Assembly (NCBI RefSeq): GCF_030013205.1
Contig: NZ_CP122648.1
DNA length: 64,000 nucleotides
Reading direction: 5' to 3' (one strand)
From: Escherichia coli
GTDB taxonomy: Bacteria; Pseudomonadota; Gammaproteobacteria; Enterobacterales; Enterobacteriaceae
Part shown: positions 166 to 53,232 of the stretch, piece after piece
Layout: every line of letters begins with the position of its first letter
How positions within the stretch are numbered: the stretch's first letter is position 1
Translations under genes and position numbers: made by a program
Notes under the pieces: generated by a model
What the model was told of the DNA's origin: nothing
The model's input: the letters and a program-made list of their open reading frames with translations, nothing else
Databases searched by the model: none

Positions 166-1779
166 TCAATGCTTCACAATATACATAGTCCGACTGTACG
201 CCACATCTTCCGGGTTATTAATGGGATAACCTTTCAGCCACGGCTTGATTAATCGTCCATTGGTATATTGATAAATTGGTGCAATCGGTGCTTGCTCCAT
301 GAGGATTTTTTCTGCCGTATTGTAATCGGCATTACGCGCTTTAACGGTATTTTCCGTTGATGCCTGGGCCAGTACTTTGTCGTATGCCGGATTGTTAAAG
401 CGTGAAATATTCCCTGAATGCGTTGACGTTAACAACGTAAGGAAAGTGGAGGGTTCATTATAATCCCCTACCCATGAGGCGCGGATAACATCAAAATTGC
501 CGGTGTTACGGCTATCGATATAGGTTTTCCATTCCTGATTCTGCAATTTAACATCTACGCCAAGGTTCTTTTTCCACATCGATGCTACAGCAATCGCAAT
601 TTTTTGATGGTTTTCTGAAGTGTTATACAAAAGCGTCAGCTTCAGCGGTTTTTGCGGACCATAACCAGCTGCGCTCAACAAAGTTTTTGCCTGCGCATTC
701 AGTTCTTCCTGACTCATTTGTTCAAACGGCGAAGGCTCCGGCGTAAAACCGGCAGTAACATCTGGTGTAAAATGCCACGCTGGCTTTTCCCCCGTCCCCA
801 ACACTTTTTCGGTCATCAGGCGGCGATCTATCGTCATACTTAATGCCAGGCGAACACGCTGATCGGCCGTCGGCCCTTTTTGCGTGCTAAACGCATAATA
901 ATAGGTCCCGAGCTGCGGCGGCGTATAAACCTGCCCCGGAATATCCTTCAACAGCTTCTGATACATATTTTTCGGGAAGGATTCGGTGATATCAATATCC
1001 CCCGCGAGATAACGCTTAGTGGCTGCGGATTCCTGATTAATTGGCAGGAAGGTCACTTTTTGCAGTACCGTTTTGGCGTTATCCCAATAATGGGTATTCG
1101 GCACCACGACCAGTTTTTCATTGACTATGCGCTCTTTAAGAACATAAGCGCCATTGCCGATCAGATTTCCGGGTTTCGTCCACTCTTTACTGCTTTCTAC
1201 GTTGGCTTTTTGCACTGGGAAGAAGGCAAAGTTAGCGGTTAAATTCACAAACCACGGCAACGGTTTATCAAGCTGGATTTTCAAAGTATGGGCATCAACT
1301 GCGGTGACGCCAAGCTGGTCAGGCGTGGCTTTACCATCAATAATCGCCTGTGCGTTGTTAATTCCCGCCAGCGCGGCAAACCATGCAAATGGCGACAATG
1401 TTTTTGGGTCCACCAGACGTTGCCAGCTGTAGACAAAATCTTGCGCCGTTACCGGTGTGCCATCCGCCCATTTTGCGTTATCGCGCAGGGTAAAAGTCCA
1501 AATACGGTTGTCATTACTTTTCCACTGAGTCGCAACGCCGGGGACAATCTCCCCTTTCTCGTTCTGATTCACCAGTCCTTCAAACAGATCGCGAATGACC
1601 TGAATCTCCGGCAGGCCCACGGCTTTAGCGGGATCCAGAGACGCTGGCTCATCTTTAATGTGGCGCACCAGCTCCTGCTTCTCTGCCAGTACTGTGCCGC
1701 TCGGAACTTCAGCAGCATACGAAAGAGAAATGCTGCTGACCAACAGCGCACAACACGTGACTGAAACAGAGTGCTTCAT
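166..1779 (-). CDS. mppA: Periplasmic murein tripeptide-binding protein (OppA paralogue)
   Basis: 544-codon ORF in the track; N-terminus MKHSVSVTCCALLVSSISLSYA is a signal peptide. Start placed at the internal Met (MKHSV) to give the recalled 537 aa. Confidence 0.9.
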   Translation of the reverse strand: MKHSVSVTCCALLVSSISLSYAAEVPSGTVLAEKQELVRHIKDEPASLDPAKAVGLPEIQVIRDLFEGLVNQNEKGEIVPGVATQWKSNDNRIWTFTLRDNAKWADGTPVTAQDFVYSWQRLVDPKTLSPFAWFAALAGINNAQAIIDGKATPDQLGVTAVDAHTLKIQLDKPLPWFVNLTANFAFFPVQKANVESSKEWTKPGNLIGNGAYVLKERIVNEKLVVVPNTHYWDNAKTVLQKVTFLPINQESAATKRYLAGDIDITESFPKNMYQKLLKDIPGQVYTPPQLGTYYYAFSTQKGPTADQRVRLALSMTIDRRLMTEKVLGTGEKPAWHFTPDVTAGFTPEPSPFEQMSQEELNAQAKTLLSAAGYGPQKPLKLTLLYNTSENHQKIAIAVASMWKKNLGVDVKLQNQEWKTYIDSRNTGNFDVIRASWVGDYNEPSTFLTLLTSTHSGNISRFNNPAYDKVLAQASTENTVKARNADYNTAEKILMEQAPIAPIYQYTNGRLIKPWLKGYPINNPEDVAYSRTMYIVKH

Positions 1780-1836
1780 AAGTTTCCCTCTAACCGACAT
1801 TAAAATTGATGCGTAATTATTTGTTTCGCCTTAAAG

Positions 1837-1866
1837 AAATGCAAACAACTTCCATCAAAAAAGTGA
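1837..1866 (+). repeat. 30-bp exact direct repeat, copy A (AAATGCAAACAACTTCCATCAAAAAAGTGA), upstream of mppA
   Basis: Read directly from the sequence; identical 30-mer at 5725-5754. Confidence 0.85.
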
Positions 1867-2115
1867 CAAAGGAAGCATCAAATGTTTTAAGTATCAATAT
1901 ATCAAATCAGATTTAGTGTAAATAATAGTCTCCAAAATGCGGTAAAGCACATAGAACTCCGAACACTACGTTCGGGCTTCGCACGTTCAAACCCGTTTTC
2001 GGTATCATAATCAGCATCTGTCGCCATTGTACGAAGAATAAAAAATGACCAAAACGTTGAAAGGAACTGAGAATACGTTAAGAGAAGAATTAAATTAATG
2101 TATCAGCAAGTAGTG

Positions 2116-3015
2116 CTAAACAGCACCTTTATACTTCAGCCTATCTATAAATAATGAGAATGCCGAGCCAGCATGTCGACGGTGTGGATAGTACAGGTGA
2201 TAACCGGGTAAATCTGGTGTGAATTTATCCAAAACACGTATCAGTTTTTATTCTTTAATAGCCCGCTCAACTTGATCATAAGGTAGATACGCCAATCCAT
2301 GCCCATCAATTGCAGCATCAATGATCAGGTCTATCGTATTCAGTAAAAGCTGACCTTCCATGCGAACACGAACTTCACGTCCACCGCGTATTAATCTCCA
2401 GCGATTTGCTGTACCCGATGTGGGAAGATACAAATTAATTGCCTGATGATCTATTAATTGTGACACTGACGTTGGAGCACTTCGACGAGAAAAATAATCC
2501 GGTGAGCCAACAATAGCCATTGGTATATCTGGCCCGATTCGAATGGCGATCATATCTTTATCCATCTCCCCACCCAGACGGACGCCTGCATCAAAACGTT
2601 CAGAAACGACATCGGTCAAACCATAATCAATGGTAAGCTGGATATCAATTTCAGGATGCGATTTCAGGAATGTGCGCATAGCTGGTAACAATATCGTTTT
2701 TGCTGCATGTTCTACAGTAGTAATACGTATTGTCCCGGATGGGCGGTTCTGCAGATCGCTCAGGGATGTCAGGGCAGAATCTATGTCATGCAACATAGGG
2801 CCAAGAACAGACAAAAGATGCTCGCCCGCTTCAGTGGGTACAACGCTGCGCGTGGTTCGCGTCAGAAGCCGCAATCCCAATCGTTCTTCTATACGGCGCA
2901 CTATCTGGCTTAAAGCTGACTGCGCCATGCTCAGGCGGGCTGCTGCGCGAGTGAAGCTACGCTCCTCTGCAACGACGACAAACGCCATCAGATCAGCGAT
3001 TTCTTCACGCTTCAT
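2116..3015 (-). pseudogene. pgrR: LysR-family regulator PgrR interrupted by an in-frame TAA at 2248-2250; expressed ORF 2248-3015 is 255 codons
   Basis: N-terminal LysR HTH (MKREEIADLMAFVVVAEERSFTRAAARL...). Translating past the TAA in the same frame gives KLIRVLDKFTPDLPGYHLYYPHRRHAGSAFSLFIDRLKYKGAV then TAG at 2116-2118, a typical LysR C-terminus. 255 + 1 + 43 = 299 codons, the length I recall for PgrR. Confidence 0.75.
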
Positions 3016-3039
3016 TCAGTATCTCCATACAATCTATTA

Positions 3040-3053
3040 ATCATTTAAATGAT
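3040..3053. promoter_or_regulatory. 14-bp perfect palindrome ATCATTTAAATGAT in the divergent pgrR/ycjY promoter region; candidate LysR-type (PgrR) operator
   Basis: Palindrome read from sequence. Flanked by a direct repeat GGTCTAATCA (3055-3064 and 3073-3082) and a second palindrome GTGATATCAC (3104-3113). Operator assignment is inference. Confidence 0.35.
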
Positions 3054-3152
3054 AGGTCTAATCATAATTTAGGGTCTAATCAACTTAATGATCAATATCT
3101 ATAGTGATATCACCAACCGTCAAAACGAACCGACAACTCCATGAGGAACGGA

Positions 3153-4073
3153 ATGATGAATAATAAAGTCAGCTTCACTAACAGCAATAATCCAACCATC
3201 TCTTTGTCTGCAGTGATCTATTTCCCTCCAAAATTTGATGAAACCCGTCAGTATCCGGCAATTGTGGTATCTCACCCAGGTGGGGGCGTTAAAGAGCAAA
3301 CGGCTGGAACCTATGCCAAAAAACTGGCGGAAAAGGGATTTGTCACTATTGCTTATGACGCATCTTATCAAGGTGAAAGCGGCGGCGAGCCGCGTCAGTT
3401 AGAAAACCCATACATTCGTACTGAAGACGTCAGTGCCGTGATTGATTACCTGACAACGCTTTCTTATGTCGACAATACCCGAATTGGTGCGATGGGAATT
3501 TGTGCCGGTGCAGGATATACAGCCAATGCTGCAATTCAGGATCGCCGCATCAAGGCCATCGGTACTGTTAGTGCGGTCAATATTGGTTCGATGTTCCGTA
3601 ATGGTTGGGAAAACAATGTGAAATCTATTGATGCCCTACCATACGTTGACGCGGGTTCAAACGCCCGAACCAGCGATATTAGTAGCGGAGAATACGCCAC
3701 TATGCCACTGGCACCAATGAAGGAGTCCGATGCGCCGAACGAAGAACTGCGTCAGGCCTGGGAGTATTACCACACCCCTCGCGCGCAGTATCCAACAGCA
3801 CCGGGTTACGCTACTTTGCGCAGCCTTAACCAGATTATTACCTATGATGCTTACCATATGGCGGAAGTGTACCTGACTCAGCCGATACAGATTGTGGCGG
3901 GCAGCCAGGCAGGGAGCAAATGGATGAGTGACGACCTGTACGATCGAGCATCAAGCCAGGATAAACGCTATCACATTGTTGAAGGCGCAAACCATATGGA
4001 TCTTTATGACGGCAAAGTCTATGTGGCTGAAGCAATTTCAGTATTAGCGCCGTTCTTTGAGGAAACTCTGTAA
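3153..4073 (+). CDS. ycjY: Alpha/beta-hydrolase fold protein (dienelactone-hydrolase-like)
   Basis: ORF 3141-4073; start placed at MMNNKV. Recognised as YcjY by sequence recall. Confidence 0.85.
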   Translation: MMNNKVSFTNSNNPTISLSAVIYFPPKFDETRQYPAIVVSHPGGGVKEQTAGTYAKKLAEKGFVTIAYDASYQGESGGEPRQLENPYIRTEDVSAVIDYLTTLSYVDNTRIGAMGICAGAGYTANAAIQDRRIKAIGTVSAVNIGSMFRNGWENNVKSIDALPYVDAGSNARTSDISSGEYATMPLAPMKESDAPNEELRQAWEYYHTPRAQYPTAPGYATLRSLNQIITYDAYHMAEVYLTQPIQIVAGSQAGSKWMSDDLYDRASSQDKRYHIVEGANHMDLYDGKVYVAEAISVLAPFFEETL

Positions 4074-44473: not shown

Positions 44474-45637
44474 TTACTTTTGATTGTCGATTCTGGTGAG
44501 AGCAACCAGCAATGCCAGCGTATAACACACCGTAATTGCCAGACTCATTTTTAACAGTGTTTCTCCGCCAATTCCCGACAATGGCGCGGCTATACCGCCG
44601 AAGACAAACATGCTCATCCCCATCAACGCAGACGCCGTTCCAGATTCCTGCGTCCCTACTGCACTCATAGCCTCTGCCCCGCCAACAGTGCCGATGCCGC
44701 TACAAAATGCGATGGTGAAAAATAATGCCACCAGTGCCGGAATGGGCAATTGTATCCATGCGCATAAGACCGTGAGCATTGCACACAAAATTGCCGCTAT
44801 CAGGCCACCTCGCAACAATGTCATCGCGTTAATCCGTCGCGCCAGGCGCGAGAAGATCCATGAAGCAATGATAAGTCCGATGCCGTTAAGGCCAAACACC
44901 AGGCTAAATTGCATTGGACTAAAGCCAAATTCCTTCTGCAACACGAACGACGAAGAGCCGATATATGCAAACAAACCGGCCAGCATAAAACTTTGAATCA
45001 GGCAAAAGCGCATAAAACGGCGGTTCTGCACCACGCTTCGTCCGGTTAATAGCAATGATGAGCCCCTTTTATTTTCTGGCAAGGTCTCATTAATAAATAA
45101 CAGGCAGCCCAGCAACAGTACGGTGCTAATTTCAGCCATTACCCAGAATAAAGTGCGCCAGTCAAAAGTGCTGACAATGTACCCGCCCAGCACTGGCGAC
45201 AACACCGGTGCCAGGCCATTCACCGTCATTAACAGCGCAAAAAACTGGGTCAACGTTACTCCCTGATATTTGTCACGAGCAATAGAACGAGAGAGCACCG
45301 AACCACCCGCCCCCGCGATCCCTTGAATAAAACGCCAGACCACCAGCCAGTAAATATTGTTCGTTGTCGCGCACAAAATGGAAGAAACAATAAACAATAG
45401 CAACGACAAGATTAACGGACGTTTACGCCCTATTTTGTCGCTCAGAGGGCCAAATAACAGTTGTCCGACGCCAAGACCGATCAGTGATGCAGTCAGCGTT
45501 AATTGCGTTATGGTCGTGGTTGCCGCCAGTTGCTCAGACATCTCCGGCAAAGCCGGCAAATAAAGATCGGTACACATCGGGCCGATACCGGCTAAAAGAC
45601 CAAGAATCAATGCCCATGAAAGAGAGACTCTAGCCAT
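44474..45637 (-). CDS. MFS (DHA1, Bcr/CflA-like) efflux transporter; last gene of the efflux cluster
   Basis: 387-aa polytopic membrane ORF with MFS signature GPLSDKIGRKRP after the first helices; starts 8 nt after the OMF stop. Confidence 0.8.
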   Translation of the reverse strand: MARVSLSWALILGLLAGIGPMCTDLYLPALPEMSEQLAATTTITQLTLTASLIGLGVGQLLFGPLSDKIGRKRPLILSLLLFIVSSILCATTNNIYWLVVWRFIQGIAGAGGSVLSRSIARDKYQGVTLTQFFALLMTVNGLAPVLSPVLGGYIVSTFDWRTLFWVMAEISTVLLLGCLLFINETLPENKRGSSLLLTGRSVVQNRRFMRFCLIQSFMLAGLFAYIGSSSFVLQKEFGFSPMQFSLVFGLNGIGLIIASWIFSRLARRINAMTLLRGGLIAAILCAMLTVLCAWIQLPIPALVALFFTIAFCSGIGTVGGAEAMSAVGTQESGTASALMGMSMFVFGGIAAPLSGIGGETLLKMSLAITVCYTLALLVALTRIDNQK

Positions 45638-45645
45638 ATTATTCC

Positions 45646-47019
45646 TTACTTGAGTGATGACATGCCGCCGTCCAGCGACTGCCAGAGCGTGATTCGGTTT
45701 GTAAAATCAGTCAGTTGTAGTGCCAGCAGCGCCTGCTGTGCGCTCCACAAGCTGCGCTGCGCCGTCAACACGGTCAGGTAATCACCAACACCCGCCTGAT
45801 AGCGACGCAAGCCAACATCGACCGTTTGTTGCTCAGCTTTAACATACTGGCGCTGTGCATCCAGTTGCTCTTCAAGCGTGGTCCGCCGCGCCAGTGCGTT
45901 AGCGACATCTTTAAATGCGCTCTGAACGGTTTTTTCATAGGTGGCAATGAGTCCACGCTTTTGTGCTTCTGCGTAACGAAGCTGCGCCAGATTACTTCCG
46001 CCAGTGAACAGCGGTAATGTGACCGATGGCGTAAATGACCAGATCTGCATTCCGTGGCTGAACAACGACGACAATGCGTCACTGCCAACACCAGCGCTGG
46101 CAGTCAGCGAAATCGTCGGAAAAAAGTTAGCCCGCGCCGCGCCAATATCGGCATTGGCGCTCTTCAAATTATGTTCCGCTTCCTGGATATCCGGGCGACG
46201 CAGCAGAACGTCAGATGACACTCCCGCAGGAACCAGACTTATCATTTGTTCCGGCAGGCTTTCCAGTGTTCCCGGTAGCAGATTTTCCGCAAGCGTTGTA
46301 CCTGCCAGTAAGTTCAGCGCATTTTTATCCTGCATCACTTGTGTCTGATAGCTGGCAACGCTGGCGCGCGCTTGCTGATAAACACTCATCGCCTCACTGA
46401 CATCTGTCGCTGCCGCCGTGCCAACCTGTTGCTGGCGCTGGATAATTTTCAATGAGTTTTCTGCACTGGCCATCGTTTCTTTTGCCAGGGCCAGGTTGCT
46501 GTTATCAGCCGCCAGTGTCAGCCAGGCGGTGCTGATTTCAGCAATCAGCGTTAAACGAGTGTTCTGGGCTGTAAATTCACTGGCAAGCCAGGTTTCCCGC
46601 GCCGCCCGAGATAAACTCTGATTACGACCAAACAGATCTAACGTAAAACTGGACACCGTGCCGTCAGCCTCGGCAGTGGTTTCCGTACCATTCGCCAGCG
46701 AACGACTGCGGGTTGAACTTAAGGCCGCATTCACCGTCGGGAATAACGACGCATTAGTTTGCCCATAGAGCGCCCGTGCTGAGTCAATATCAGCAATCGC
46801 TTTTTGCACATCGCGGTTACTGTTCAGTGCAATAGTCACCACCTGCTGCAATCGGGGATCGTGGATCACCTGCTGCCAGTCATGGCTGATTGCCTTTCCC
46901 TGGCCCTGTGCTCCCGGCAAGGTCGCCGGGATTGGGGATTCAGGCGTGCTGTAGTGGGGCTCGAGCGAGACACATCCCGCACTCAACAGCACCAGAAAAA
47001 TAAGAGAACGACGCAACAT
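45646..47019 (-). CDS. Outer-membrane efflux lipoprotein (OMF, NodT/OprM family)
   Basis: 457-aa ORF with lipoprotein signal peptide (LLSAGC) and the long coiled-coil-rich body typical of OMFs. Confidence 0.8.
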   Translation of the reverse strand: MLRRSLIFLVLLSAGCVSLEPHYSTPESPIPATLPGAQGQGKAISHDWQQVIHDPRLQQVVTIALNSNRDVQKAIADIDSARALYGQTNASLFPTVNAALSSTRSRSLANGTETTAEADGTVSSFTLDLFGRNQSLSRAARETWLASEFTAQNTRLTLIAEISTAWLTLAADNSNLALAKETMASAENSLKIIQRQQQVGTAAATDVSEAMSVYQQARASVASYQTQVMQDKNALNLLAGTTLAENLLPGTLESLPEQMISLVPAGVSSDVLLRRPDIQEAEHNLKSANADIGAARANFFPTISLTASAGVGSDALSSLFSHGMQIWSFTPSVTLPLFTGGSNLAQLRYAEAQKRGLIATYEKTVQSAFKDVANALARRTTLEEQLDAQRQYVKAEQQTVDVGLRRYQAGVGDYLTVLTAQRSLWSAQQALLALQLTDFTNRITLWQSLDGGMSSLK

Positions 47020-47022
47020 AAC

Positions 47023-50000
47023 TTACTCCTGACGGCGCGGTTTACCGGCAAACAAACGTTTCACCAGTACAAAAAACAGAGGAACAAAGAAAATAGCCAG
47101 CAACGTAGCGGTCAGCGTACCGCCAATAATGCCCGTACTAATGGCGATGCGGCTGTTCGCCCCTGCGCCGGTTGCTATCGCCAGCGGCATTACCCCCGCA
47201 ATAAACGCCAGCGAGGTCATGATGATTGGGCGTAAACGAGTCTGCGCCGCGCGTAATGCCGCACGACTCAAGGAATAGCCCTCTGCAACCGCCGCTTCAG
47301 CAAATTCCACAATCAGAATGGCGTTTTTCGACGACAAGCCGATAGTGGTTAATAGCGCCACCTGGAAGTAAACATCGTTGTTTAAATCACGCATCCAGGC
47401 CGCCAGCGCCGCGCCAAGAAGCCCCAGAGGGATCACCAGAATGACCGAGAACGGGACTGACCAGCTTTCGTACAGTGCTGCAAGGCAGAGGAAAACCACC
47501 AGAATAGAAACTGCATACAGACTCAATGCCTGACCGCTGGCCAGTTTCTCCTGCAATGACAAACCACTCCAGGCCCAGGTTGTTCCCGCAGGAAGACTGT
47601 TTGCCAGTTCCTCCATTTTTGTCATTGCATCGCCGGAACTAAAGCCAGTCGCATTTTCCCCCTGAATTTCATAGGCTGCCGAGCCGTTGTAGCGCACCAG
47701 TCTTTCCGGTCCATACAGCCAGCGGGTGGTCGCAAAAGCAGAGAATGGTGTCATGGCGTTATCGCTGCCGCGCACAAACCATTTACCTAAGTCTGACGGC
47801 GCGGAACGAAATTCGCTGTCGCCCTGAATGTAGACTTTTTTCACACGACCACGGTCAATAAAGTCATTCACATAAGTACCGCCCCACGCACTGGACAGGG
47901 TGTCGGTGACATCATTCAAACTCAACCCTAATGACACCACTTTATTGCTATCAATATCTACCTGCAATTGCGGCATTTGTGGCAAATCATTGGCGCGTAC
48001 AGAATGTAACTCCGGACTTTGATTCGCTTTTTCTATCAACTGATTACGCATTTGCAGCAGTGTTTCACGATCGGTTCCACCGTTAGCTAACAATTCAAAC
48101 GTAAAACCATTGCTTTGCCCCAGCCCATCAACGGCTGGCGGCGTCATCGCAAATACCGTGGCATCACGAATTGTGCCCAGCTCTTTGGTTGCCCGTAGGG
48201 CGATAGCCTGGGCGGTGTTTTCTGCCCCTTTACGTTGAGACCAGTTTTTCAACGAAACAAACGCCATCCCGGTGTTCTGTCCGCTGCCGCTAAAACTGAA
48301 ACCATCAACGGTAAAGATGACATCGGTATTTGCTTTCTCGTTAATCAGGAACCAGTCAACAATCTGGCGATTCACTTCTGCTGTACGGGCAGCGGTCGCC
48401 CCGGCCGGCAGCGTGTACTGCACCATGATTTCGCCCTGGTCTTCAGTGGGTAAGAAACTGCCCGGCAGTTTCCACATCATCAGGGCCATTCCACCACCCA
48501 GTACGACATAAAGCCCCATCGTTCGAGCAGCACGGCGCAGGACATAAATTACGCCTCGCTGATATTTATCTTCAGTACGGCGGTAAAAGCGGTTAAATGC
48601 GCCAAAAAAGCCTTTTTTATGTGGCGGAACATGCTGGAGGACGGAACCGCACAGGGCGGGAGTCAAGGTCAATGCCACTACCACGGAAAGCAGCATTGCG
48701 GAGATAATGGTTATCGAAAACTGACGATAAATTACCCCCGTAGATCCCCCAAAGAAGGCCATAGGCAGGAATACGGCTGACAACACCAGCGCAATGGCAA
48801 CCAGTGCGCCAGAAATCTCGCCCATTGATTTTTCCGTGGCTTCACGCGCGGGCAACCCTTCGTCACGCATAATGCGTTCGACGTTCTCCACCACCACAAT
48901 GGCATCGTCCACCAGCAAGCCGATCGCCAGCACCATTGCAAACAACGTCAGGGTATTAATCGAATAGCCAAACAACGCAAGAACGCCGAATGTGCCCAGC
49001 AAAACGACGGGGACAGCTAACGCCGGAATCAGTGTGGCACGCAGGTTTTGCAGGAATAAATACATCACGCAAACCACCAATACGATGGCTTCAAACAGCG
49101 TCTGAATTACGTCCTCTACAGAGATTTTAATAAATTCAGTGCTGTCTTTCGGGTATGCGATGTCGTATCCCTGCGGCATGTTCCGCTGGAATTCGGCAAT
49201 CTTATCCTTGACCAGCGTCGCCGTATTCAGCGCATTCGCACCGGGCGAAAGCATTACAGCAACCCCGGCAGACGGGTGACCGTTAAGTTTGCCGATAGCG
49301 GTATAATCTTCACTGCCCATCTCAACGCGAGCCACATCTTTTATACGAACAACTGCGCCGTCTGACTGGCTTTTCACGATAATATTTTTGAACTGATCCA
49401 CCGTCTGCAAGCGAGACTGCGCACGTACCGTTGCGGTCAGTTGCTGAGTATTCGGTGAAGGCAATGCCCCTATTTTCCCGGCAGTAACCTGCACGTTTTG
49501 CGCTTCAATAGCACTTTGCACGTCTGAAGGCATTAGCGAGTAAGACGCCAGTTTGGCCGGGTCAAGCCAGATGCGCATAGCGTATTCCGCGCCAAAGACT
49601 TGCAGACTCCCCACACCTTCAACACGCGCCAGCGGGTCCTGAACGTTACTAACCAACCAGTCGGCGATATCCGAACTGGAGGCTTTGTCAGTGGTGTCAT
49701 ACACGGCAGCAATCAGCAAAAAGTTGCTTTGTGATTTCTCCACCGTAACACCCGTTTGCTGCACTTCGCTGGGTAGGCGCGACTCCGCCTGCTGAATTTT
49801 ATTCTGCACCTGAACCTGTGCAGTATCTGGATCGGTACCTTGTTCAAAGGTCACATTAATACTGACCGAACCATCAGAGCTGCTGGTTGAGCTGAAATAG
49901 AGTAAATTATCAAGCCCAGTGAGTTGTTGCTCGATAACCTGAGTCACGCTGTTCTCCAGCGTTTCGGCAGAAGCACCAGTATAAGTGGCTGAAATTTTAA

Positions 50001-50130
50001 TGGTCGGTGGCGCAACGTCAGGATATTGTGCGACGGGCAATGTGCGAATAGCCAGAATCCCCGCCAACATAATCAAAATGGCGATAACCCAGGCAAAGAC
50101 CGGGCGGCGAACAAAAAAGCGCGAAAACAT
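47023..50130 (-). CDS. RND (HAE1, AcrB/MexB-like) inner-membrane efflux pump
   Basis: 1035-aa ORF with strong recalled similarity to AcrB blocks (MFSRFF..RPVFAWVIAI..., VQVQNK..., GLLVDDAIVVVENVER, NDVYFQVALLTTIGLS). Start overlaps the MFP stop (TGATG). Confidence 0.85.
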   Translation of the reverse strand: MFSRFFVRRPVFAWVIAILIMLAGILAIRTLPVAQYPDVAPPTIKISATYTGASAETLENSVTQVIEQQLTGLDNLLYFSSTSSSDGSVSINVTFEQGTDPDTAQVQVQNKIQQAESRLPSEVQQTGVTVEKSQSNFLLIAAVYDTTDKASSSDIADWLVSNVQDPLARVEGVGSLQVFGAEYAMRIWLDPAKLASYSLMPSDVQSAIEAQNVQVTAGKIGALPSPNTQQLTATVRAQSRLQTVDQFKNIIVKSQSDGAVVRIKDVARVEMGSEDYTAIGKLNGHPSAGVAVMLSPGANALNTATLVKDKIAEFQRNMPQGYDIAYPKDSTEFIKISVEDVIQTLFEAIVLVVCVMYLFLQNLRATLIPALAVPVVLLGTFGVLALFGYSINTLTLFAMVLAIGLLVDDAIVVVENVERIMRDEGLPAREATEKSMGEISGALVAIALVLSAVFLPMAFFGGSTGVIYRQFSITIISAMLLSVVVALTLTPALCGSVLQHVPPHKKGFFGAFNRFYRRTEDKYQRGVIYVLRRAARTMGLYVVLGGGMALMMWKLPGSFLPTEDQGEIMVQYTLPAGATAARTAEVNRQIVDWFLINEKANTDVIFTVDGFSFSGSGQNTGMAFVSLKNWSQRKGAENTAQAIALRATKELGTIRDATVFAMTPPAVDGLGQSNGFTFELLANGGTDRETLLQMRNQLIEKANQSPELHSVRANDLPQMPQLQVDIDSNKVVSLGLSLNDVTDTLSSAWGGTYVNDFIDRGRVKKVYIQGDSEFRSAPSDLGKWFVRGSDNAMTPFSAFATTRWLYGPERLVRYNGSAAYEIQGENATGFSSGDAMTKMEELANSLPAGTTWAWSGLSLQEKLASGQALSLYAVSILVVFLCLAALYESWSVPFSVILVIPLGLLGAALAAWMRDLNNDVYFQVALLTTIGLSSKNAILIVEFAEAAVAEGYSLSRAALRAAQTRLRPIIMTSLAFIAGVMPLAIATGAGANSRIAISTGIIGGTLTATLLAIFFVPLFFVLVKRLFAGKPRRQE

Positions 50131-51251
50131 CAGGCGTTGCCTCCATTAGCCTGAACTTCAACAGCCTTGACGGTCTGCCCTGAAGTGACTTTGGCAGAAC
50201 CTTCAACAATCAGTCGGTCGCCGTTGTGCAGGCCGTTCAGCACCAGCCATTTATCACCATACGTTTCTCCCGTTTCGAGCGTTCGCTGCTCTACTTTATT
50301 GTCTTTATTCACCACCAGCGCAGTTGCATTGCCTTTAGCATCGCGCGTGACGCCCTGTTGCGGCGCGAGAATAGCGTCTTCCATCACGCCTTCATCGACA
50401 CGAGCGCGAACAAACATTCCCGGTAATAACTGCTGTTGTGGATTGGGGAAAATCGCCCGTAATGTCACCGAACCGGTAGACTCATCTACAGCGACTTCGG
50501 TGAGTTCCAGACGCCCTTTTTCGCTGTAGGTTGTGCCATCTTCCAGAATAAGTGAGACGCTCATGGTGTCACTGTTGGTCGCCAGTGACTGTTTACGCAG
50601 ACGTAATAAATCGACACTGGAGCGAGTGAGGTCGACATACATTGTCTCCAGACCACGAATAGTCGTTAACGCTGTATCTTGCGACGCGGTCACCAGTGCG
50701 CCAGGGGTTACCGACGAAATGCCAATTCGCCCTGAAATCGGTGCGGTTACCGTGGTCCAGTCAAGATTAATGCGCGCAGTTTCCAGCGCGGCTTTTTTCG
50801 CCTCTACACTGGCTTTATCTTGTGCACAGGTAGACTGAGCATCATCAGCATCCTGTTGTGAAACACCGTTCTCTTTCACCAGTCGGGCATAACGCTGCGC
50901 TTTCTGGCAATCGGCTTTTACCAGTGCCTGTGCTTGTTGTAATGCTGCCCGAGCTTCATTCCATGCAGCCTGATAACTGGCCGCATCAATCTGGTAGAGA
51001 GGCTGTCCAGCCTTGACCAGATCCCCTTCCTTAAATAAGCGTTTCTGGATAATTCCCCCAACCTGCGGACGTACTTCAGCACTGAGCGCAGCACTGGTGC
51101 GTCCGGTTAATTCACTGACTACCGAGACCGGTTGAGATTTGACTGTAACAACGCCGACTTCTGTTTCTGACGGGGATGAATTGTTACTTTGCGTATTATC
51201 ACAACCAGATAAGAGCAGCATTGCCACTACAGATGTTGCTATATACTTCAT
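50130..51251 (-). CDS. Periplasmic membrane-fusion lipoprotein (AcrA/MexA family)
   Basis: ORF 50130-51284; start placed at MKYIATSVVAMLLLSGC (lipobox, GGAG 8 nt upstream). Confidence 0.8.
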   Translation of the reverse strand: MKYIATSVVAMLLLSGCDNTQSNNSSPSETEVGVVTVKSQPVSVVSELTGRTSAALSAEVRPQVGGIIQKRLFKEGDLVKAGQPLYQIDAASYQAAWNEARAALQQAQALVKADCQKAQRYARLVKENGVSQQDADDAQSTCAQDKASVEAKKAALETARINLDWTTVTAPISGRIGISSVTPGALVTASQDTALTTIRGLETMYVDLTRSSVDLLRLRKQSLATNSDTMSVSLILEDGTTYSEKGRLELTEVAVDESTGSVTLRAIFPNPQQQLLPGMFVRARVDEGVMEDAILAPQQGVTRDAKGNATALVVNKDNKVEQRTLETGETYGDKWLVLNGLHNGDRLIVEGSAKVTSGQTVKAVEVQANGGNA

Positions 51252-51278
51252 TATTTTCTCCAGGGTGAGAAATACCCT

Positions 51279-51298
51279 CCTCATTAAAATTAATGAGG
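51279..51298. promoter_or_regulatory. Perfect inverted repeat CCTCATTAA-aa-TTAATGAGG 28-47 nt upstream of the MFP start; candidate operator
   Basis: Read from sequence; 9-bp arms, 2-bp spacer. Confidence 0.35.
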
Positions 51299-51335
51299 AT
51301 ATGTCAGGGATATTCAGTTATAACGAACCCGCATC

Positions 51336-51351
51336 GCGAAATGAATTTCGC
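51336..51351. promoter_or_regulatory. Perfect inverted repeat GCGAAAT-ga-ATTTCGC between tetR and the MFP gene; candidate operator
   Basis: Read from sequence; 7-bp arms, 2-bp spacer. Confidence 0.35.
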
Positions 51352-51361
51352 AATGAAATAA

Positions 51362-51379
51362 GGGGGATTAATATCCCCC
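51362..51379 (-). terminator. GC hairpin (GGGGGA-TATTAA-TCCCCC) followed by a U-rich tract on the minus strand, 20 nt after the tetR stop
   Basis: Minus strand reads hairpin then TTATTTCATT; candidate terminator or attenuator between regulator and pump genes. Confidence 0.4.
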
Positions 51380-51399
51380 GCTATTGGTTAATTCTGTTC

Positions 51400-51966
51400 T
51401 TATTTATTTATCAACATACTAACAATATCCTGATATATTTCCTGCAGATGTTGTGGATCGCTTTTTTGCGGTGTTAAACGACGATAAACCGTACCTTCCA
51501 TCATGGTAGCAAACACTTCAACGCAGCAACGAATGTGCTCGTCGCTAAGATGGGGATGCATTCTTTTCATATGTGCACAACCGTTAGCGAACATTCTGGC
51601 GTCAGCTTCTTCAAGCATTGCCATAACCCGCGGGTTGCGTGTGGCTTCTGCAGCCACTTCCAGCATCAGCGCGTCGTCGTCCTCATTTAAGGATTTACGC
51701 AAGGCAAGGACTTCCGGGAAGTGATCGGTACGCGCGTCAATGTCCATTTGGGCAATACGAAAGTCGATGATACGGCGAACCATCTCTTCAATAATGGCGT
51801 CTTTGTTGGCGAAGTAACGATATATCTGACCCACGCTAAGCTGAGCTTCGCTGGCAATTTGCGACATACTGGCGGCATGAAACCCGCAGCGACGAAAACA
51901 CCGACGGGCGGCGTTAATGATTTCATCCTGACGCTGTTTGTGGCGTATCTCCAGCTTGCTGGTCAT
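51400..51966 (-). CDS. TetR/AcrR-family transcriptional regulator, co-oriented with and upstream of the pump genes
   Basis: ORF 51400-52065; start placed at MTSKLEIRHK (AGGAGA 5 nt upstream) so the HTH (AARRCFRRCGFHAASMSQIASEAQLSVGQIYRYF) sits at the usual N-terminal position. The longer 221-codon version would read through the palindrome at 51992-52009. Confidence 0.75.
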   Translation of the reverse strand: MTSKLEIRHKQRQDEIINAARRCFRRCGFHAASMSQIASEAQLSVGQIYRYFANKDAIIEEMVRRIIDFRIAQMDIDARTDHFPEVLALRKSLNEDDDALMLEVAAEATRNPRVMAMLEEADARMFANGCAHMKRMHPHLSDEHIRCCVEVFATMMEGTVYRRLTPQKSDPQHLQEIYQDIVSMLINK

Positions 51967-51991
51967 TTCTGTCTCCTGGCCTATCACTTGG

Positions 51992-52009
51992 TGAGAATGA
52001 TCGTTCTCA
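51992..52009. promoter_or_regulatory. 18-bp imperfect palindrome TGAGAATGATCGTTCTCA 26 nt upstream of the proposed tetR start; candidate autoregulatory operator
   Basis: Two mismatches from perfect dyad symmetry. Confidence 0.35.
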
Positions 52010-52443
52010 TTTTTGCTGATTATACGTTTCTCCAAAGTAATGGAAAGTATTTTTATCTTATTCATGGTGCATATTCTGATAATGAAGAGATTGTGGAGAT
52101 TATGTGAAGATAGTTGACAATATTAAGTTGGGGTCAATTCATCAGAAAGGCTGCTACTTGTTGTCGCCAGTTCTGTTTTCATCATCAAACTTATCGGAGC
52201 TAATACGAATAGTTTCAGAGTCAGATTCTATAAGATATTCCCCCAACCTACCCCTTGCAGGCGTCAAGAGTAGATAACGCAAAATGCTCTGTACCGCAGC
52301 TTCTCTCCGGTACAGAAAGCGCAACTATAGCCACCCACAGCCAGGTTGATTATAATAACCGTTTATCTGTTCGTACTGTTTACTAAAACGACGAATCGCC
52401 TGATTTTCAGGCACAACAAGCATCAACAATAAGGATTAAAGCT

Positions 52444-53232
52444 ATGGGTTTTCTTTCCGGTAAGCGCATTCTGGTAACCGGTGTTGCCAGCAAACTGTCC
52501 ATCGCCTACGGTATCGCTCAGGCGATGCACCGCGAAGGAGCTGAACTGGCATTCACCTACCAGAACGACAAACTGAAAGGCCGCGTAGAAGAATTTGCAG
52601 CTCAATTGGGTTCTGACATCGTTCTGCAGTGCGATGTTGCCGAAGATGCCAGCATCGACACCATGTTCGCTGAACTGGCGAAAGTTTGGCCGAAATTTGA
52701 CGGTTTCGTACACTCTATTGGTTTTGCACCTGGCGATCAGCTGGATGGTGACTATGTTAACGCCGTTACCCGTGAAGGCTTCAAAATTGCTCACGACATC
52801 AGCTCCTACAGCTTCGTTGCAATGGCAAAAGCTTGCCGCTCCATGCTGAATCCGGGTTCTGCCCTGCTGACCCTTTCCTACCTTGGCGCTGAGCGCGCTA
52901 TCCCGAACTACAACGTTATGGGTCTGGCAAAAGCGTCTCTGGAAGCAAACGTGCGCTATATGGCGAACGCGATGGGTCCGGAAGGTGTGCGTGTTAACGC
53001 CATCTCTGCGGGTCCGATCCGTACTCTGGCGGCTTCCGGTATCAAAGACTTCCGCAAAATGCTGGCTCATTGCGAAGCCGTTACCCCGATTCGCCGTACC
53101 GTTACCATTGAAGATGTGGGTAACTCTGCGGCATTCCTGTGCTCCGATCTCTCTGCCGGTATCTCCGGTGAAGTGGTCCACGTTGACGGCGGTTTCAGTA
53201 TCGCTGCAATGAACGAACTCGAACTGAAATAA
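52444..53232 (+). CDS. fabI: Enoyl-ACP reductase (NADH)
   Basis: 262-aa ORF; recognised by sequence recall. Confidence 0.95.

Follow-up and report, generated by a model that had tools for sequence, protein, structure and literature searches.

A conserved, apparently structured spacer between regulator and pump genes in the Escherichia coli eefRABCD operon

Introduction

In several efflux operons, namely marRAB and emrRAB of Escherichia coli and lmrAB of Bacillus subtilis, the repressor gene is promoter-proximal, a single operator overlaps the promoter, and regulator and effector are de-repressed together. The regulators of marRAB and emrRAB belong to the MarR family, while lmrAB combines a TetR-family regulator with an MFS pump. 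To our knowledge, a long structured intercistronic spacer is no described feature of any of these three operons. In cmeR-cmeABC of Campylobacter jejuni, a TetR-family gene lies directly upstream of an MFP-RND-OMF operon and is co-oriented with it, and CmeR acts at the pump promoter, on an inverted repeat lying between cmeR and cmeA. Outside efflux, the rplL-rpoB intercistronic attenuator of E. coli is a long spacer with a leaky Rho-independent terminator and further stem-loops, giving unequal expression from one promoter.

Among TetR-family genes, 67–77% are divergent from a neighbour (PMC3511530). In the Vibrio cholerae vexRAB operon, a TetR-family gene comes first in an RND operon and the regulator binds its own upstream promoter, as is the case for eefR; the authors called this layout unusual for its co-orientation of regulator and pump (PMC4335029). 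On the other hand, VexR is an activator whereas EefR is a repressor, and vexRAB has neither an OMF nor an MFS gene and no reported structured spacer.

The eef operon of E. coli has been described in two papers (Shen et al., Virulence 2025, PMC12482432; Microb Genom 2026, PMC12817139). EefR binding and in vivo repression of eefR-D were demonstrated in strain ATCC 35218 (PMC12482432). The hairpin and repeats of the eefR-eefA spacer are not described in these papers, where the spacer served only as a nonspecific probe, and the papers contain no mapped transcript ends and no gene-order comparison outside E. coli.

Here the eef locus is analyzed in a window of 64,000 nucleotides, the whole stretch of E. 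coli DNA under study (contig NZ_CP122648.1), with emphasis on the spacer. The repressor-first design of marRAB, emrRAB and lmrAB is common to the eef operon, but the eef regulator controls both RND and MFS pumps, unlike those of the three operons.

Results

Identity of the locus

The locus in the window is the E. coli eefR-eefABC-eefD (eefRABCD) accessory operon published in 2025–2026. Five co-oriented genes (TetR, MFP, RND, OMF, MFS) lie between fabI and sapF (Table 1), and the gene order fabI / eefR-A-B-C-D / sapF in the RefSeq annotation of an identical locus is the published location (PMC12817139). Location, gene order, the 188-aa EefR and the operator are identical to those published, leaving no difference in system. 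The published primers and sgRNA of Shen et al. match the window exactly, with the eefR sgRNA mapping to 51850-51869. Because the sequences are identical to those of ATCC 35218, we assume that EefR action is valid for the window strain. Of 5426 complete E. coli genomes, 2043 carry the eef locus, and the window EefR falls within a 99%-identity cluster of 1296 sequences.

Table 1 Features of the eef locus in the window
Feature	Coordinates	Strand	Description
PeefR	52019..52046	(-)	Predicted sigma-70 promoter; -35 TTTCCA 52046-52041, 16-bp spacer, -10 TATAAT 52024-52019
EefR operator	51992..52009	(-)	TGAGAACGATCATTCTCA; 9 bp downstream of -10, 25 bp upstream of eefR ATG
eefR	51400..51966	(-)	TetR-family repressor, 188 aa; start ATG 51966, Shine-Dalgarno AGGAGA 51977-51972
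H1	51352..51379	(-)	Stem-loop GGGGGAU-AUUA-AUCCCCC 51379-51362 and U-rich tail UUAUUUCAUU 51361-51352; terminator-like in scan
H2	51332..51355	(-)	RNA stem-loop CAUUGCGAAAU-UC-AUUUCGCGAUG; RNAalifold consensus; includes repeat 51336-51351
H3	51278..51299	(-)	RNA stem-loop UCCUCAUUAA-UU-UUAAUGAGGA; 27 nt before eefA start
Pseudo-operator	51266..51283	(-)	TGAGGAGGGTATTTCTCA; 1 mismatch to TGAGAA-N6-TTCTCA; overlaps H3 3' arm; probably non-functional
eefA	50130..51251	(-)	Periplasmic adaptor lipoprotein; Pfam HlyD_D23; NCBIfam RND_mfp; PGAP start
eefB	47023..50130	(-)	RND permease; PF00873 ACR_tran, 1238 bits; 1-nt overlap with eefA stop
eefC	45646..47019	(-)	Outer-membrane factor; PF02321 OEP; TIGR01845; 3 nt after eefB
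eefD	44474..45637	(-)	MFS (Bcr/CflA-type) exporter; PF07690 MFS_1; TIGR00710; 8 nt after eefC

EefR carries an N-terminal TetR_N helix-turn-helix (PF00440, E = 1.1e-15), as a TetR-family member does, with weak Pfam matches to TetR_C_31 and TetR_C_6 below the gathering threshold. A preliminary description of the window had pointed to a TetR-type regulator on the same strand as its MFP-RND-OMF pump as an unusual layout, and both points hold, the family by Pfam and the rarity by the divergence survey (PMC3511530). It had also noted that the longest reading frame, which does extend to ATG 52065 through the upstream palindrome, made the choice of start codon matter. This choice is now settled, as functional EefR has 188 aa from ATG 51966, which is the PGAP start and the length in Shen et al. 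(PMC12482432), and ends with TAA at 51402-51400. The 33-codon N-terminal extension from ATG 52065 is not conserved; in 13 of 14 orthologous loci a stop occurs 2–21 codons upstream, and in the remaining one (L002) the distance is 30 codons. ATG 52065 is also upstream of the predicted -35.

For eefA, the start at ATG 51251, with a Shine-Dalgarno sequence GGAG at 51261-51258, yields the lipoprotein signal MKYIATSVVAMLLLSGC. The longest-frame start, ATG 51284, is inside the third spacer repeat, and the extension is not conserved, being interrupted by stops in L003 and L002. All operon junctions other than eefR-eefA measure at most 8 nt.

One promoter and one operator upstream of eefR

PeefR was predicted by a consensus scan with 10 of 12 matches, and the start of transcription is a prediction, likewise in Shen et al. 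The TTTCCA/TTTTCA hexamer and a ACGTATAAT block are shared by the eefR upstream regions of Escherichia, Kluyvera, Enterobacter, Cronobacter, Klebsiella, Raoultella and Pluralibacter. A 316-bp fragment upstream of eefR drives gfp and is repressed by EefR (PeefR-gfp reporter, PMC12482432).

The operator is symmetric at 16 of its 18 positions and occurs once in the 64-kb window. It is near-invariant in 14 co-oriented loci from at least 10 genera, where it stands 19–25 bp before the eefR start and abuts or overlaps TATAAT. Purified EefR binds it in EMSA, and deletion or single-base changes abolish binding (PMC12482432); the published probe P1 maps to 51967-52095. The imperfect 18-bp palindrome reported upstream of tetR was correctly placed, and the autoregulation proposed from it is borne out by EMSA with the deletion and point mutants and by the reporter.

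All five eef genes are co-transcribed according to RT-PCR across every junction, including eefR-eefA, and eefR knock-out by inserted stop codons raises eefA-D 27- to 83-fold, eefA by 83-fold (PMC12482432). As others have shown, the single predicted sigma-70 promoter upstream of eefR is blocked by an EefR dimer, which occupies the 18-bp palindrome immediately 3' of the -10. When EefR is inactivated, presumably also by ligand binding, one transcript runs through eefR into eefA, eefB, eefC and eefD.

Three inverted repeats in the spacer

The eefR-eefA spacer is 148 bp long and AT-rich (38.5% GC). The sequence features of the preliminary description, including the hairpin after the tetR stop and two perfect inverted repeats before the MFP start, are all present on the minus strand at the coordinates given there, and they are far from chance. 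In DNA, H1 reads GGGGGAT-ATTA-ATCCCCC, then TTATTTCATT. The second repeat, GCGAAAT-TC-ATTTCGC at 51351-51336, has perfect 7-bp arms; as RNA (H2) it lengthens to an 11-bp stem at 51355-51332 via a U.G pair, and its 5' arm shares 4 nt with the end of the H1 U-tract. The third repeat, CCTCATTAA-TT-TTAATGAGG at 51298-51279, has perfect 9-bp arms, or 10 bp when extended to 51299-51278 (H3).

In a census of perfect inverted repeats whose arms measure 7 bp or more and are separated by no more than 6 bp, the window-wide density is 0.12 per 148 bp, versus three in the 148-bp spacer. Dinucleotide shuffling of the spacer gave three such repeats in 0 of 5000 sequences and two in 17 of 5000.

The spacer as a conserved, probably structured RNA

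As RNA, the spacer folds with z = -4.2 relative to shuffles. RNAalifold recovers H1–H3 on a plain MAFFT alignment, independent folds give the three hairpins in nearly every genus, and in six genera all three retain their stem-loop form through compensatory and wobble changes. Pair statistics were run on the unfitted MAFFT alignment (A1), because three spurious antisense rows had entered a covariance-model alignment (A2). Paired cells amount to 94.1%, compared with 83.1% in shuffles (0 of 500 as high) and 45–68% when the partners are slid. Double changes occur in 10 of 19 consensus pairs (H1, 2 of 5; H2, 5 of 9, compensatory; H3, 3 of 5), where the covariation comes from about five independent lineages and the shuffle control ignores phylogeny.

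The paired strand appears to be the sense RNA. G.U cells number 23 against 7 A.C cells in the alignment pairs, and pairing on the sense versus antisense strand is 98.9% versus 86.2% for H2 and 90% versus 76% for H3; H1 has no sense-strand bias. A hairpin at the H3 position is found in every co-oriented locus with different arms, for example CCCUGUUAA-GCAA-UUAACAGGG in Enterobacter and CCUCGC...GCGAGG in Kluyvera. The structured leader occurs only in the co-oriented, nested layout described below.

A Shine-Dalgarno-sequestering hairpin (UUUCUC/GAGAAA) in the minimum-free-energy fold of the window sequence depends on a lineage-specific variant and has no counterpart in L003, L004 or the other genera.

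From these sequence comparisons we infer that the 148-nt spacer is a structured part of the mRNA and no second operator region. H2 and H3 would be stem-loops of the eefA leader, most likely acting on how the pump message is processed, how stable it is or how its translation starts, although these roles are guesses. Their stems (10–11 bp) are short for classical RNase III substrates.

H1 as a candidate leaky terminator

H1 has the stem of an intrinsic terminator, with 7 bp including five G-C pairs, a 4-nt loop and -11.6 kcal/mol. Its tail has U at 7 of 10 positions and is interrupted in E. coli. Stem and U-tract are retained, although the stem sequence differs, in Kluyvera, Enterobacter, Cronobacter, Klebsiella and Raoultella, and the U-tract is stronger than that of E. 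coli in the last four. K. aerogenes and Salmonella have no U-tract, and that of Phytobacter and Kosakonia is weak or displaced. Published RT-PCR indicates at least some read-through past H1 (PMC12482432), and a search of the literature, both eef papers included, turned up no mapped transcript ends in the spacer and no Northern or Term-seq data.

H1 looks like a partial, leaky intrinsic terminator after eefR. Attenuation here, raised in the preliminary description, is plausible because stem and U-tract are conserved in six genera. A leaky H1 would keep repressor transcripts above pump transcripts and damp basal pump expression. The eef spacer would thereby resemble the rplL-rpoB attenuator, its own function being deduced from covariation and sequence only.

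A stronger version would make the three hairpins a dedicated conditional cis-regulatory RNA, in which a ligand-, protein-, sRNA- or translation-responsive attenuator switches H1 termination, so that once EefR has been released the pump would face a second gate that depends on a signal. Conservation of three structures with covariation, restriction of the leader to the nested layout, and the 4-nt overlap of the H1 U-tract with the H2 5' arm, which could couple their folding, are in keeping with it. However, no Rfam 15 family matches at E <= 1 in 51150-52450 on either strand, a conserved alternative (antiterminator) pairing is not evident in the independent folds, and no unpaired blocks are conserved like ligand pockets except GAUGCGG. 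H1 is also without a proper U-tract in the four genera with absent, weak or displaced tracts, and there is no conserved leader peptide. We therefore regard a dedicated conditional RNA as unlikely.

A 6-codon frame, MRVRYN, starting in the H2 3' arm was considered for leader-peptide attenuation and rejected; it has no Shine-Dalgarno sequence, shrinks to ATG-TAG in E. albertii, and is missing from Kluyvera and K. aerogenes.

No support for a separate pump promoter

The preliminary description had proposed that the pump has a promoter of its own, gated separately, near the downstream repeats. Such a model places a second eefABCD promoter in the spacer, gated by EefR or another dimeric protein, with separate control of pump and regulator. 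The co-oriented cmeR-cmeABC system operates so and fits this model; the eef operator is instead upstream of the regulator, and the intergenic fragment is not EefR-bound. Other points in its favor are the length of the spacer in an otherwise tightly packed operon, its AT-richness, its two perfect palindromes, and the one-mismatch pseudo-operator. In addition, K. aerogenes eefABC is reported, in work cited in PMC12817139, to be a separate unit with its own H-NS-silenced promoter.

Published EMSA bears directly on this proposal. The cold competitor used there as nonspecific DNA corresponds to 51252-51397, the entire spacer including the hairpin and both repeats. It failed to compete for EefR (PMC12482432), a result that excludes binding of comparable affinity, not weak binding. 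Thus an EefR-gated separate pump promoter is not supported. Apart from the pseudo-operator, no pump-proximal TetR operator of the AcrR/CmeR type was found between regulator and pump genes. The downstream repeats do not resemble the EefR operator, and their arms co-vary between genera while operator and EefR are constant, with G.U wobbles favoring sense RNA. H3 as a decayed ancestral pump-proximal operator has no convincing sequence similarity.

The pseudo-operator is probably non-functional. It lies inside the non-competing fragment, it is not conserved in L003, L004 and L013, and its TGAGGA half-site carries the same change as the single-base mutant M1 (primer MT-1-R), which abolished binding (PMC12482432).

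A sigma-70 promoter scan of the spacer gave none in the window at >=9/12 or >=8/12 and none in 11 of 14 orthologous loci; three isolated matches in other species are not positionally conserved and do not make a conserved internal promoter. The 83-fold rise of eefA upon eefR inactivation, together with co-transcription across the eefR-eefA junction, also points away from a second promoter. With competition EMSA, motif, promoter scan and RT-PCR all against it, we judge this alternative highly unlikely.

That the downstream repeats are functionless, having arisen by chance or been left behind when a rearrangement brought eefABC next to eefR, is barely credible. Palindromes do arise easily in AT-rich intergenic DNA, and the L002 spacer tolerated a 124-bp repeat-element insertion. 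However, that insertion lies upstream of H1 and spares all three hairpins, shuffles never yielded three repeats, 1905 of 2040 E. coli genomes have a spacer with at least 99% identity, and the structure is kept with compensatory changes across genera at about 65–70% EefR identity.

Proposed nesting of eefABC between eefR and eefD

Across Enterobacterales, the constant neighbor of the regulator is the MFS gene eefD, and eefABC is in between only in Enterobacteriaceae. An eefD orthologue comes immediately after the eefR homologue in Erwinia, Pantoea, Pluralibacter, Serratia, Dickeya, Brenneria and Pectobacterium, an EefD-like MFS gene being directly 3' of the homologue in the Erwinia and Pantoea pairs, a Pluralibacter remnant and five divergent loci.

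These divergent eefR-eefD / eefABC loci (L011, L012 and L015-L017, from Serratia, Dickeya, Brenneria and Pectobacterium) were found in this analysis. Their regulator-MFS pair is divergent from the pump, with identities of 45–50% for the regulator, 59–63% for the adaptor and 47–49% for the MFS protein. They share the 9-bp operator half-site TGAGAATGA, with the palindrome about 20 bp before the pump gene and containing 4 extra central bp, and they have no structured leader.

The gene orders suggest that eefR-eefD would be an old repressor-first two-gene unit, inside which eefABC became nested in Enterobacteriaceae. The regulator would then be co-oriented with the pump because eefABC is nested between eefR and eefD.

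Discussion

We consider it likely that the whole account holds, with a single EefR-blocked promoter, one transcript, a structured spacer and a nested eefABC. As regulator, operator and operon structure were already published, the preliminary finding as stated adds little. Beyond the published work, the conserved leader, if structured as predicted, would be a modest addition. Gene-order comparison offers a simple evolutionary reason for the co-orientation, that is, an RND module nested in an older TetR-MFS pair.

EefABC is a seventh RND system, cryptic and accompanied by the MFS pump EefD. Within E. coli it is restricted to the phylogroups with the strongest link to infection, and in an acrB-null background one mutation in eefR is enough to turn on multidrug resistance. 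We give little credence to the three-hairpin leader being an independent, condition-responsive gate after initiation, either as a switchable terminator or as a target of an RNA-binding protein or sRNA. If it were true, the pump would need EefR release and a second signal, which would explain why EefABC is cryptic in the laboratory though the operon is conserved in pathogenic lineages. If H1 is leaky or the leader conditional, the spacer would set the amount of pump made per de-repression event, and it would be a second place for resistance-enhancing mutations.

Locus identity and layout

The five ORF products belong by domain to the TetR (PF00440), HlyD-type adaptor, AcrB-type RND permease, OEP outer-membrane factor and MFS exporter classes, and fabI and sapF flank all five genes, as in an identical RefSeq locus. 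The locus is the eefRABCD operon. The DNA is E. coli chromosome, and the 1.1-kb region was found in 2043 of 5426 complete E. coli genomes. The operon is carried by phylogroups B2, D, E, F and G, and is absent from A, B1 and C, which have ycjD at the site (PMC12817139). At 51.2%, the GC content of the operon equals the window value and gives no sign of a recent foreign island, although the eefR-eefA spacer has 38.5%.

This spacer is the sole sizeable intercistronic region. The junctions within 44474-51251 are tight, with a 1-nt overlap of eefA and eefB, a 3-nt gap between eefB and eefC, and an 8-nt gap between eefC and eefD. All repeats, the hairpin and the palindrome listed in the preliminary description are correctly placed, on the minus strand.

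Features of the eefR-eefA region in window coordinates
Feature	Sequence or signal	Position	Strand	Remark
Upstream inverted repeat	CTGTACCG-N11-CGGTACAG, then AGCATTTTGCG	52289-52315	minus	fabI-eefR intergenic
PeefR, sigma-70-like	TTTCCA-16-TATAAT	52046-52019	minus	consensus scan
Operator	TGAGAACGATCATTCTCA	52009-51992	minus	imperfect 18-bp palindrome
eefR, TetR-family ORF	Shine-Dalgarno and ATG; TAA stop	ATG 51966; stop 51402-51400	minus
eefR-eefA spacer			minus	148 bp
H1 element	GGGGGAT-ATTA-ATCCCCC, then TTATTTCATT	51379-51352	minus
Second repeat	GCGAAAT-TC-ATTTCGC	51351-51336	minus
Third repeat	CCTCATTAA-TT-TTAATGAGG	51298-51279	minus	arms extendable to 10 bp
Pseudo-operator	TGAGGAGGGTATTTCTCA	51283-51266	minus	one mismatch to EefR half-site pattern; overlaps 3′ arm of H3
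eefA, lipoprotein adaptor gene	start ATG	51251	minus

Some 240 bp separate the upstream inverted repeat from PeefR, which lies downstream of it, and ~130 bp separate it from the fabI start. It may serve either as a fabI regulatory site or as a hairpin or terminator that shields eefR from transcription arriving from upstream.

Autoregulation at the upstream operator

Autoregulation of the TetR-family gene, as proposed from the palindrome, is borne out by published experiments. Purified EefR shifts a 129-bp probe with the operator, and the shift is abolished by palindrome deletion or a single-base change; wild-type EefR represses gfp driven by a 316-bp upstream fragment, whereas the V45E and R50S mutants do not (PMC12482432). 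The published primers place this probe at 51967-52095. TGAGAA-N6-TTCTCA has no other copy upstream of genes in the genome of that study, and the eefR transcription start given there is a predicted position (PMC12482432).

Orthologous loci were gathered by a genome scan with EefA, a protein search with EefR and 11 gene-context look-ups. In Escherichia spp., Kluyvera, Phytobacter, Enterobacter, Cronobacter, Klebsiella, Kosakonia, K. aerogenes, Salmonella, Raoultella and Pluralibacter, the operator is near-invariant (TGAGAA-YGATCR-TTCTCA), with 19-25 bp between it and the eefR ATG and a TATAAT adjoining or overlapping it. A site placed between -10 and about +20 is consistent with simple steric repression.

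The concern over start codon choice was justified, as the longest eefR ORF reaches ATG 52065 and crosses the palindrome. The published EefR length of 188 aa (PMC12482432) corresponds to ATG 51966. The 33-codon N-terminal extension is not conserved: in 13 of 14 orthologous loci the reading frame is stopped 2-21 codons before the shared ATG; in L002, from Escherichia sp. MOD1-EC7003, the upstream frame is open for 30 codons without an in-frame ATG. Because ATG 52065 is upstream of the -35 element, it would be off the PeefR transcript. An eefA extension to ATG 51284 was rejected, its frame being closed by stops in L002 and another related locus, L003; the EefA lipoprotein signal peptide starts at ATG 51251.

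No support for a separately gated pump promoter in the spacer

The preliminary description also proposed a separately gated pump promoter at the downstream repeats. The layout of cmeR-cmeABC matches that proposal; the eef locus does not pass as a case of the cmeR-cmeABC type. RT-PCR gave a product across every intergenic junction (PMC12482432), showing that the five genes are co-transcribed. When eefR was inactivated by inserted stop codons, eefA, eefB, eefC and eefD rose 83-, 28-, 43- and 27-fold, respectively (PMC12482432). Scans gave no sigma-70-like promoter for the window spacer or for 11 of 14 other loci; the isolated hits in the remaining three are not conserved in position.

The cold nonspecific competitor of the published gel shifts (primers eefA-gel-F and eefA-gel-R) maps to 51252-51397 and so spans the whole spacer with its hairpin and the two downstream repeats. 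This fragment failed to compete for EefR (PMC12482432). Thus the gel-shift analysis that had been suggested for the downstream repeats has in effect been done, with a negative outcome as far as binding of comparable affinity is concerned. The sole operator-like sequence in the spacer, the pseudo-operator, carries the half-site change of the single-base mutant that abolished EefR binding. It is lineage-specific, present in the window lineage and ATCC 35218, where it lies partly inside a published primer, and absent from L003, another related locus (L004) and E. albertii. The earlier interpretation was partly right: autoregulation and the start-codon concern stand, the separately gated pump promoter does not, and attenuation at the hairpin is plausible.

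A conserved three-hairpin leader

The inverted repeats of the spacer are beyond chance. A census of perfect inverted repeats (arms ≥7 bp, spacer ≤6 bp) over the whole window gave 0.12 per 148 bp, versus three in the 148-bp spacer, a number reached in 0 of 5000 dinucleotide shuffles. The folding z of the spacer RNA is -4.2.

Unlike the operator, the spacer diverges in sequence between genera, but three stem-loops keep the same positions; independent minimum-free-energy folds recover them in almost all genera. A plain MAFFT alignment of ten spacers, drawn from six genera, yields H1-H3 in RNAalifold, and 10 of 19 pairs show double (compensatory) changes. Paired cells amount to 94.1%, versus 83.1% in column shuffles (0 of 500), a control that ignores phylogeny, and 45-68% with partners slid by 1-3 columns; the sample represents only about five independent lineages. 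H2, an 11-bp RNA stem at 51355-51332 closed via a U.G pair, stands out as the strongest: 98.9% of its cells pair, and 5 of its 9 pairs carry compensatory changes. G.U cells outnumber A.C cells by 23 to 7. Pairing is higher in the sense than the antisense strand for H2 (98.9% versus 86.2%) and H3 (90% versus 76%), and H1 has no such bias. Arm swaps between genera, with the only nearby regulator and its real operator fixed, are unexpected for protein operators; the alignment thus points to selection on RNA structure within the eef transcript. No Rfam family matches the spacer, and a short spacer ORF was rejected as unconserved.

A short loop caps the GC-rich stem (6-8 bp) of H1, which the scan classes as terminator-like. 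A U run follows H1 in Escherichia, Kluyvera, Enterobacter, Cronobacter, Klebsiella and Raoultella (for example, CUUUUUUCAUU in E. hormaechei). Phytobacter, Kosakonia, Salmonella and K. aerogenes have a hairpin at or near this position without a clear U-tract. Since transcription demonstrably runs on into eefA, H1 is at most a leaky terminator. As such it would set the repressor transcript above the pump transcript and would lower basal pump expression. The likeness of the spacer to internal attenuators such as rplL-rpoB is one of logic only.

Incidentally, L002 has a 124-bp insertion (3241-3369) between the eefR stop and H1, making its spacer 272 bp with H1-H3 untouched. The insertion is 94.5% identical to a 127-bp element beside yafQ in >2700 E. 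coli genomes. It agrees with the ERIC1R and ERIC2 primers at 19 of 22 and 20 of 22 positions, respectively, which makes an ERIC/IRU repeat probable.

Proposed origin of the co-orientation

In other families, efflux operons often begin with the repressor gene, for example marRAB and emrRAB. A known regulator-first RND operon is vexRAB, in which the regulator is an activator (PMC4335029). Divergent orientation is that of the majority of TetR-family genes, 67% in three streptomycetes and 77% in E. coli (PMC3511530).

In all arrangements found, an EefD-like MFS gene (47-68% identity) comes immediately after the EefR homologue, except that eefABC lies between eefR and eefD in Enterobacteriaceae. 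Erwinia and Pantoea (L076, L077; 2501-4272) have a stand-alone eefR-MFS pair with a 4-bp overlap. In S. marcescens, Dickeya, two Brenneria and Pectobacterium (L011, L012, L015, L016, L017; ~1580-3500), the pair is divergent from the MFP-RND genes. Pluralibacter (L075, 2501-4526) keeps eefR, a recognisable spacer remnant and eefD, and has lost eefABC. The structured leader is absent from the divergent loci and from loci without eefR.

The divergent loci carry, ~20 bp before the pump gene (~3455-3480), a perfect 26-bp palindrome, ATTGAGAATGAACGTTCATTCTCAAT, also present in L077 and in L010 (Serratia rubidaea). Its 9-bp half-site TGAGAATGA is that of the E. coli operator, with 4 extra central bp (N10 versus N6 between TGAGAA and TTCTCA). 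EefR homologues of 45-50% identity may, judging from these sites, use a common half-site at different spacing or bind as two dimers. L009 (Yersinia proxima, 2936-2953) and L010 (~3425-3450) have EefR-type palindromes, TGCGAATGATTATTCTCA and TGAGAATAAACGTTCATTCTTT, just before the MFP gene; both have an EefA homologue and no EefR homologue within 3.5 kb upstream, and the cognate regulator may be encoded elsewhere. In other genera the eefR-eefA cassettes (L070-L074, L078-L080) have diverse chromosomal surroundings, lying beside AraC/TonB-receptor genes, an acetyltransferase and another TetR gene, mnmE, or a ROK-family gene; the fabI/sapF position is restricted to Escherichia among the genera compared.

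The eef system itself is already published; added here are the covarying, conserved three-hairpin leader, the placement of a published negative-control probe on the repeats, and an explanation of the co-orientation by gene order. The constant place of the MFS gene suggests an eefR-eefD operon that is older than the nesting of eefABC within it. The simplest reading, from gene order rather than a reconstructed phylogeny, is that eefR-eefD is an old repressor-first unit with the RND module later nested inside, the 148-nt leader being specific to the nested layout.
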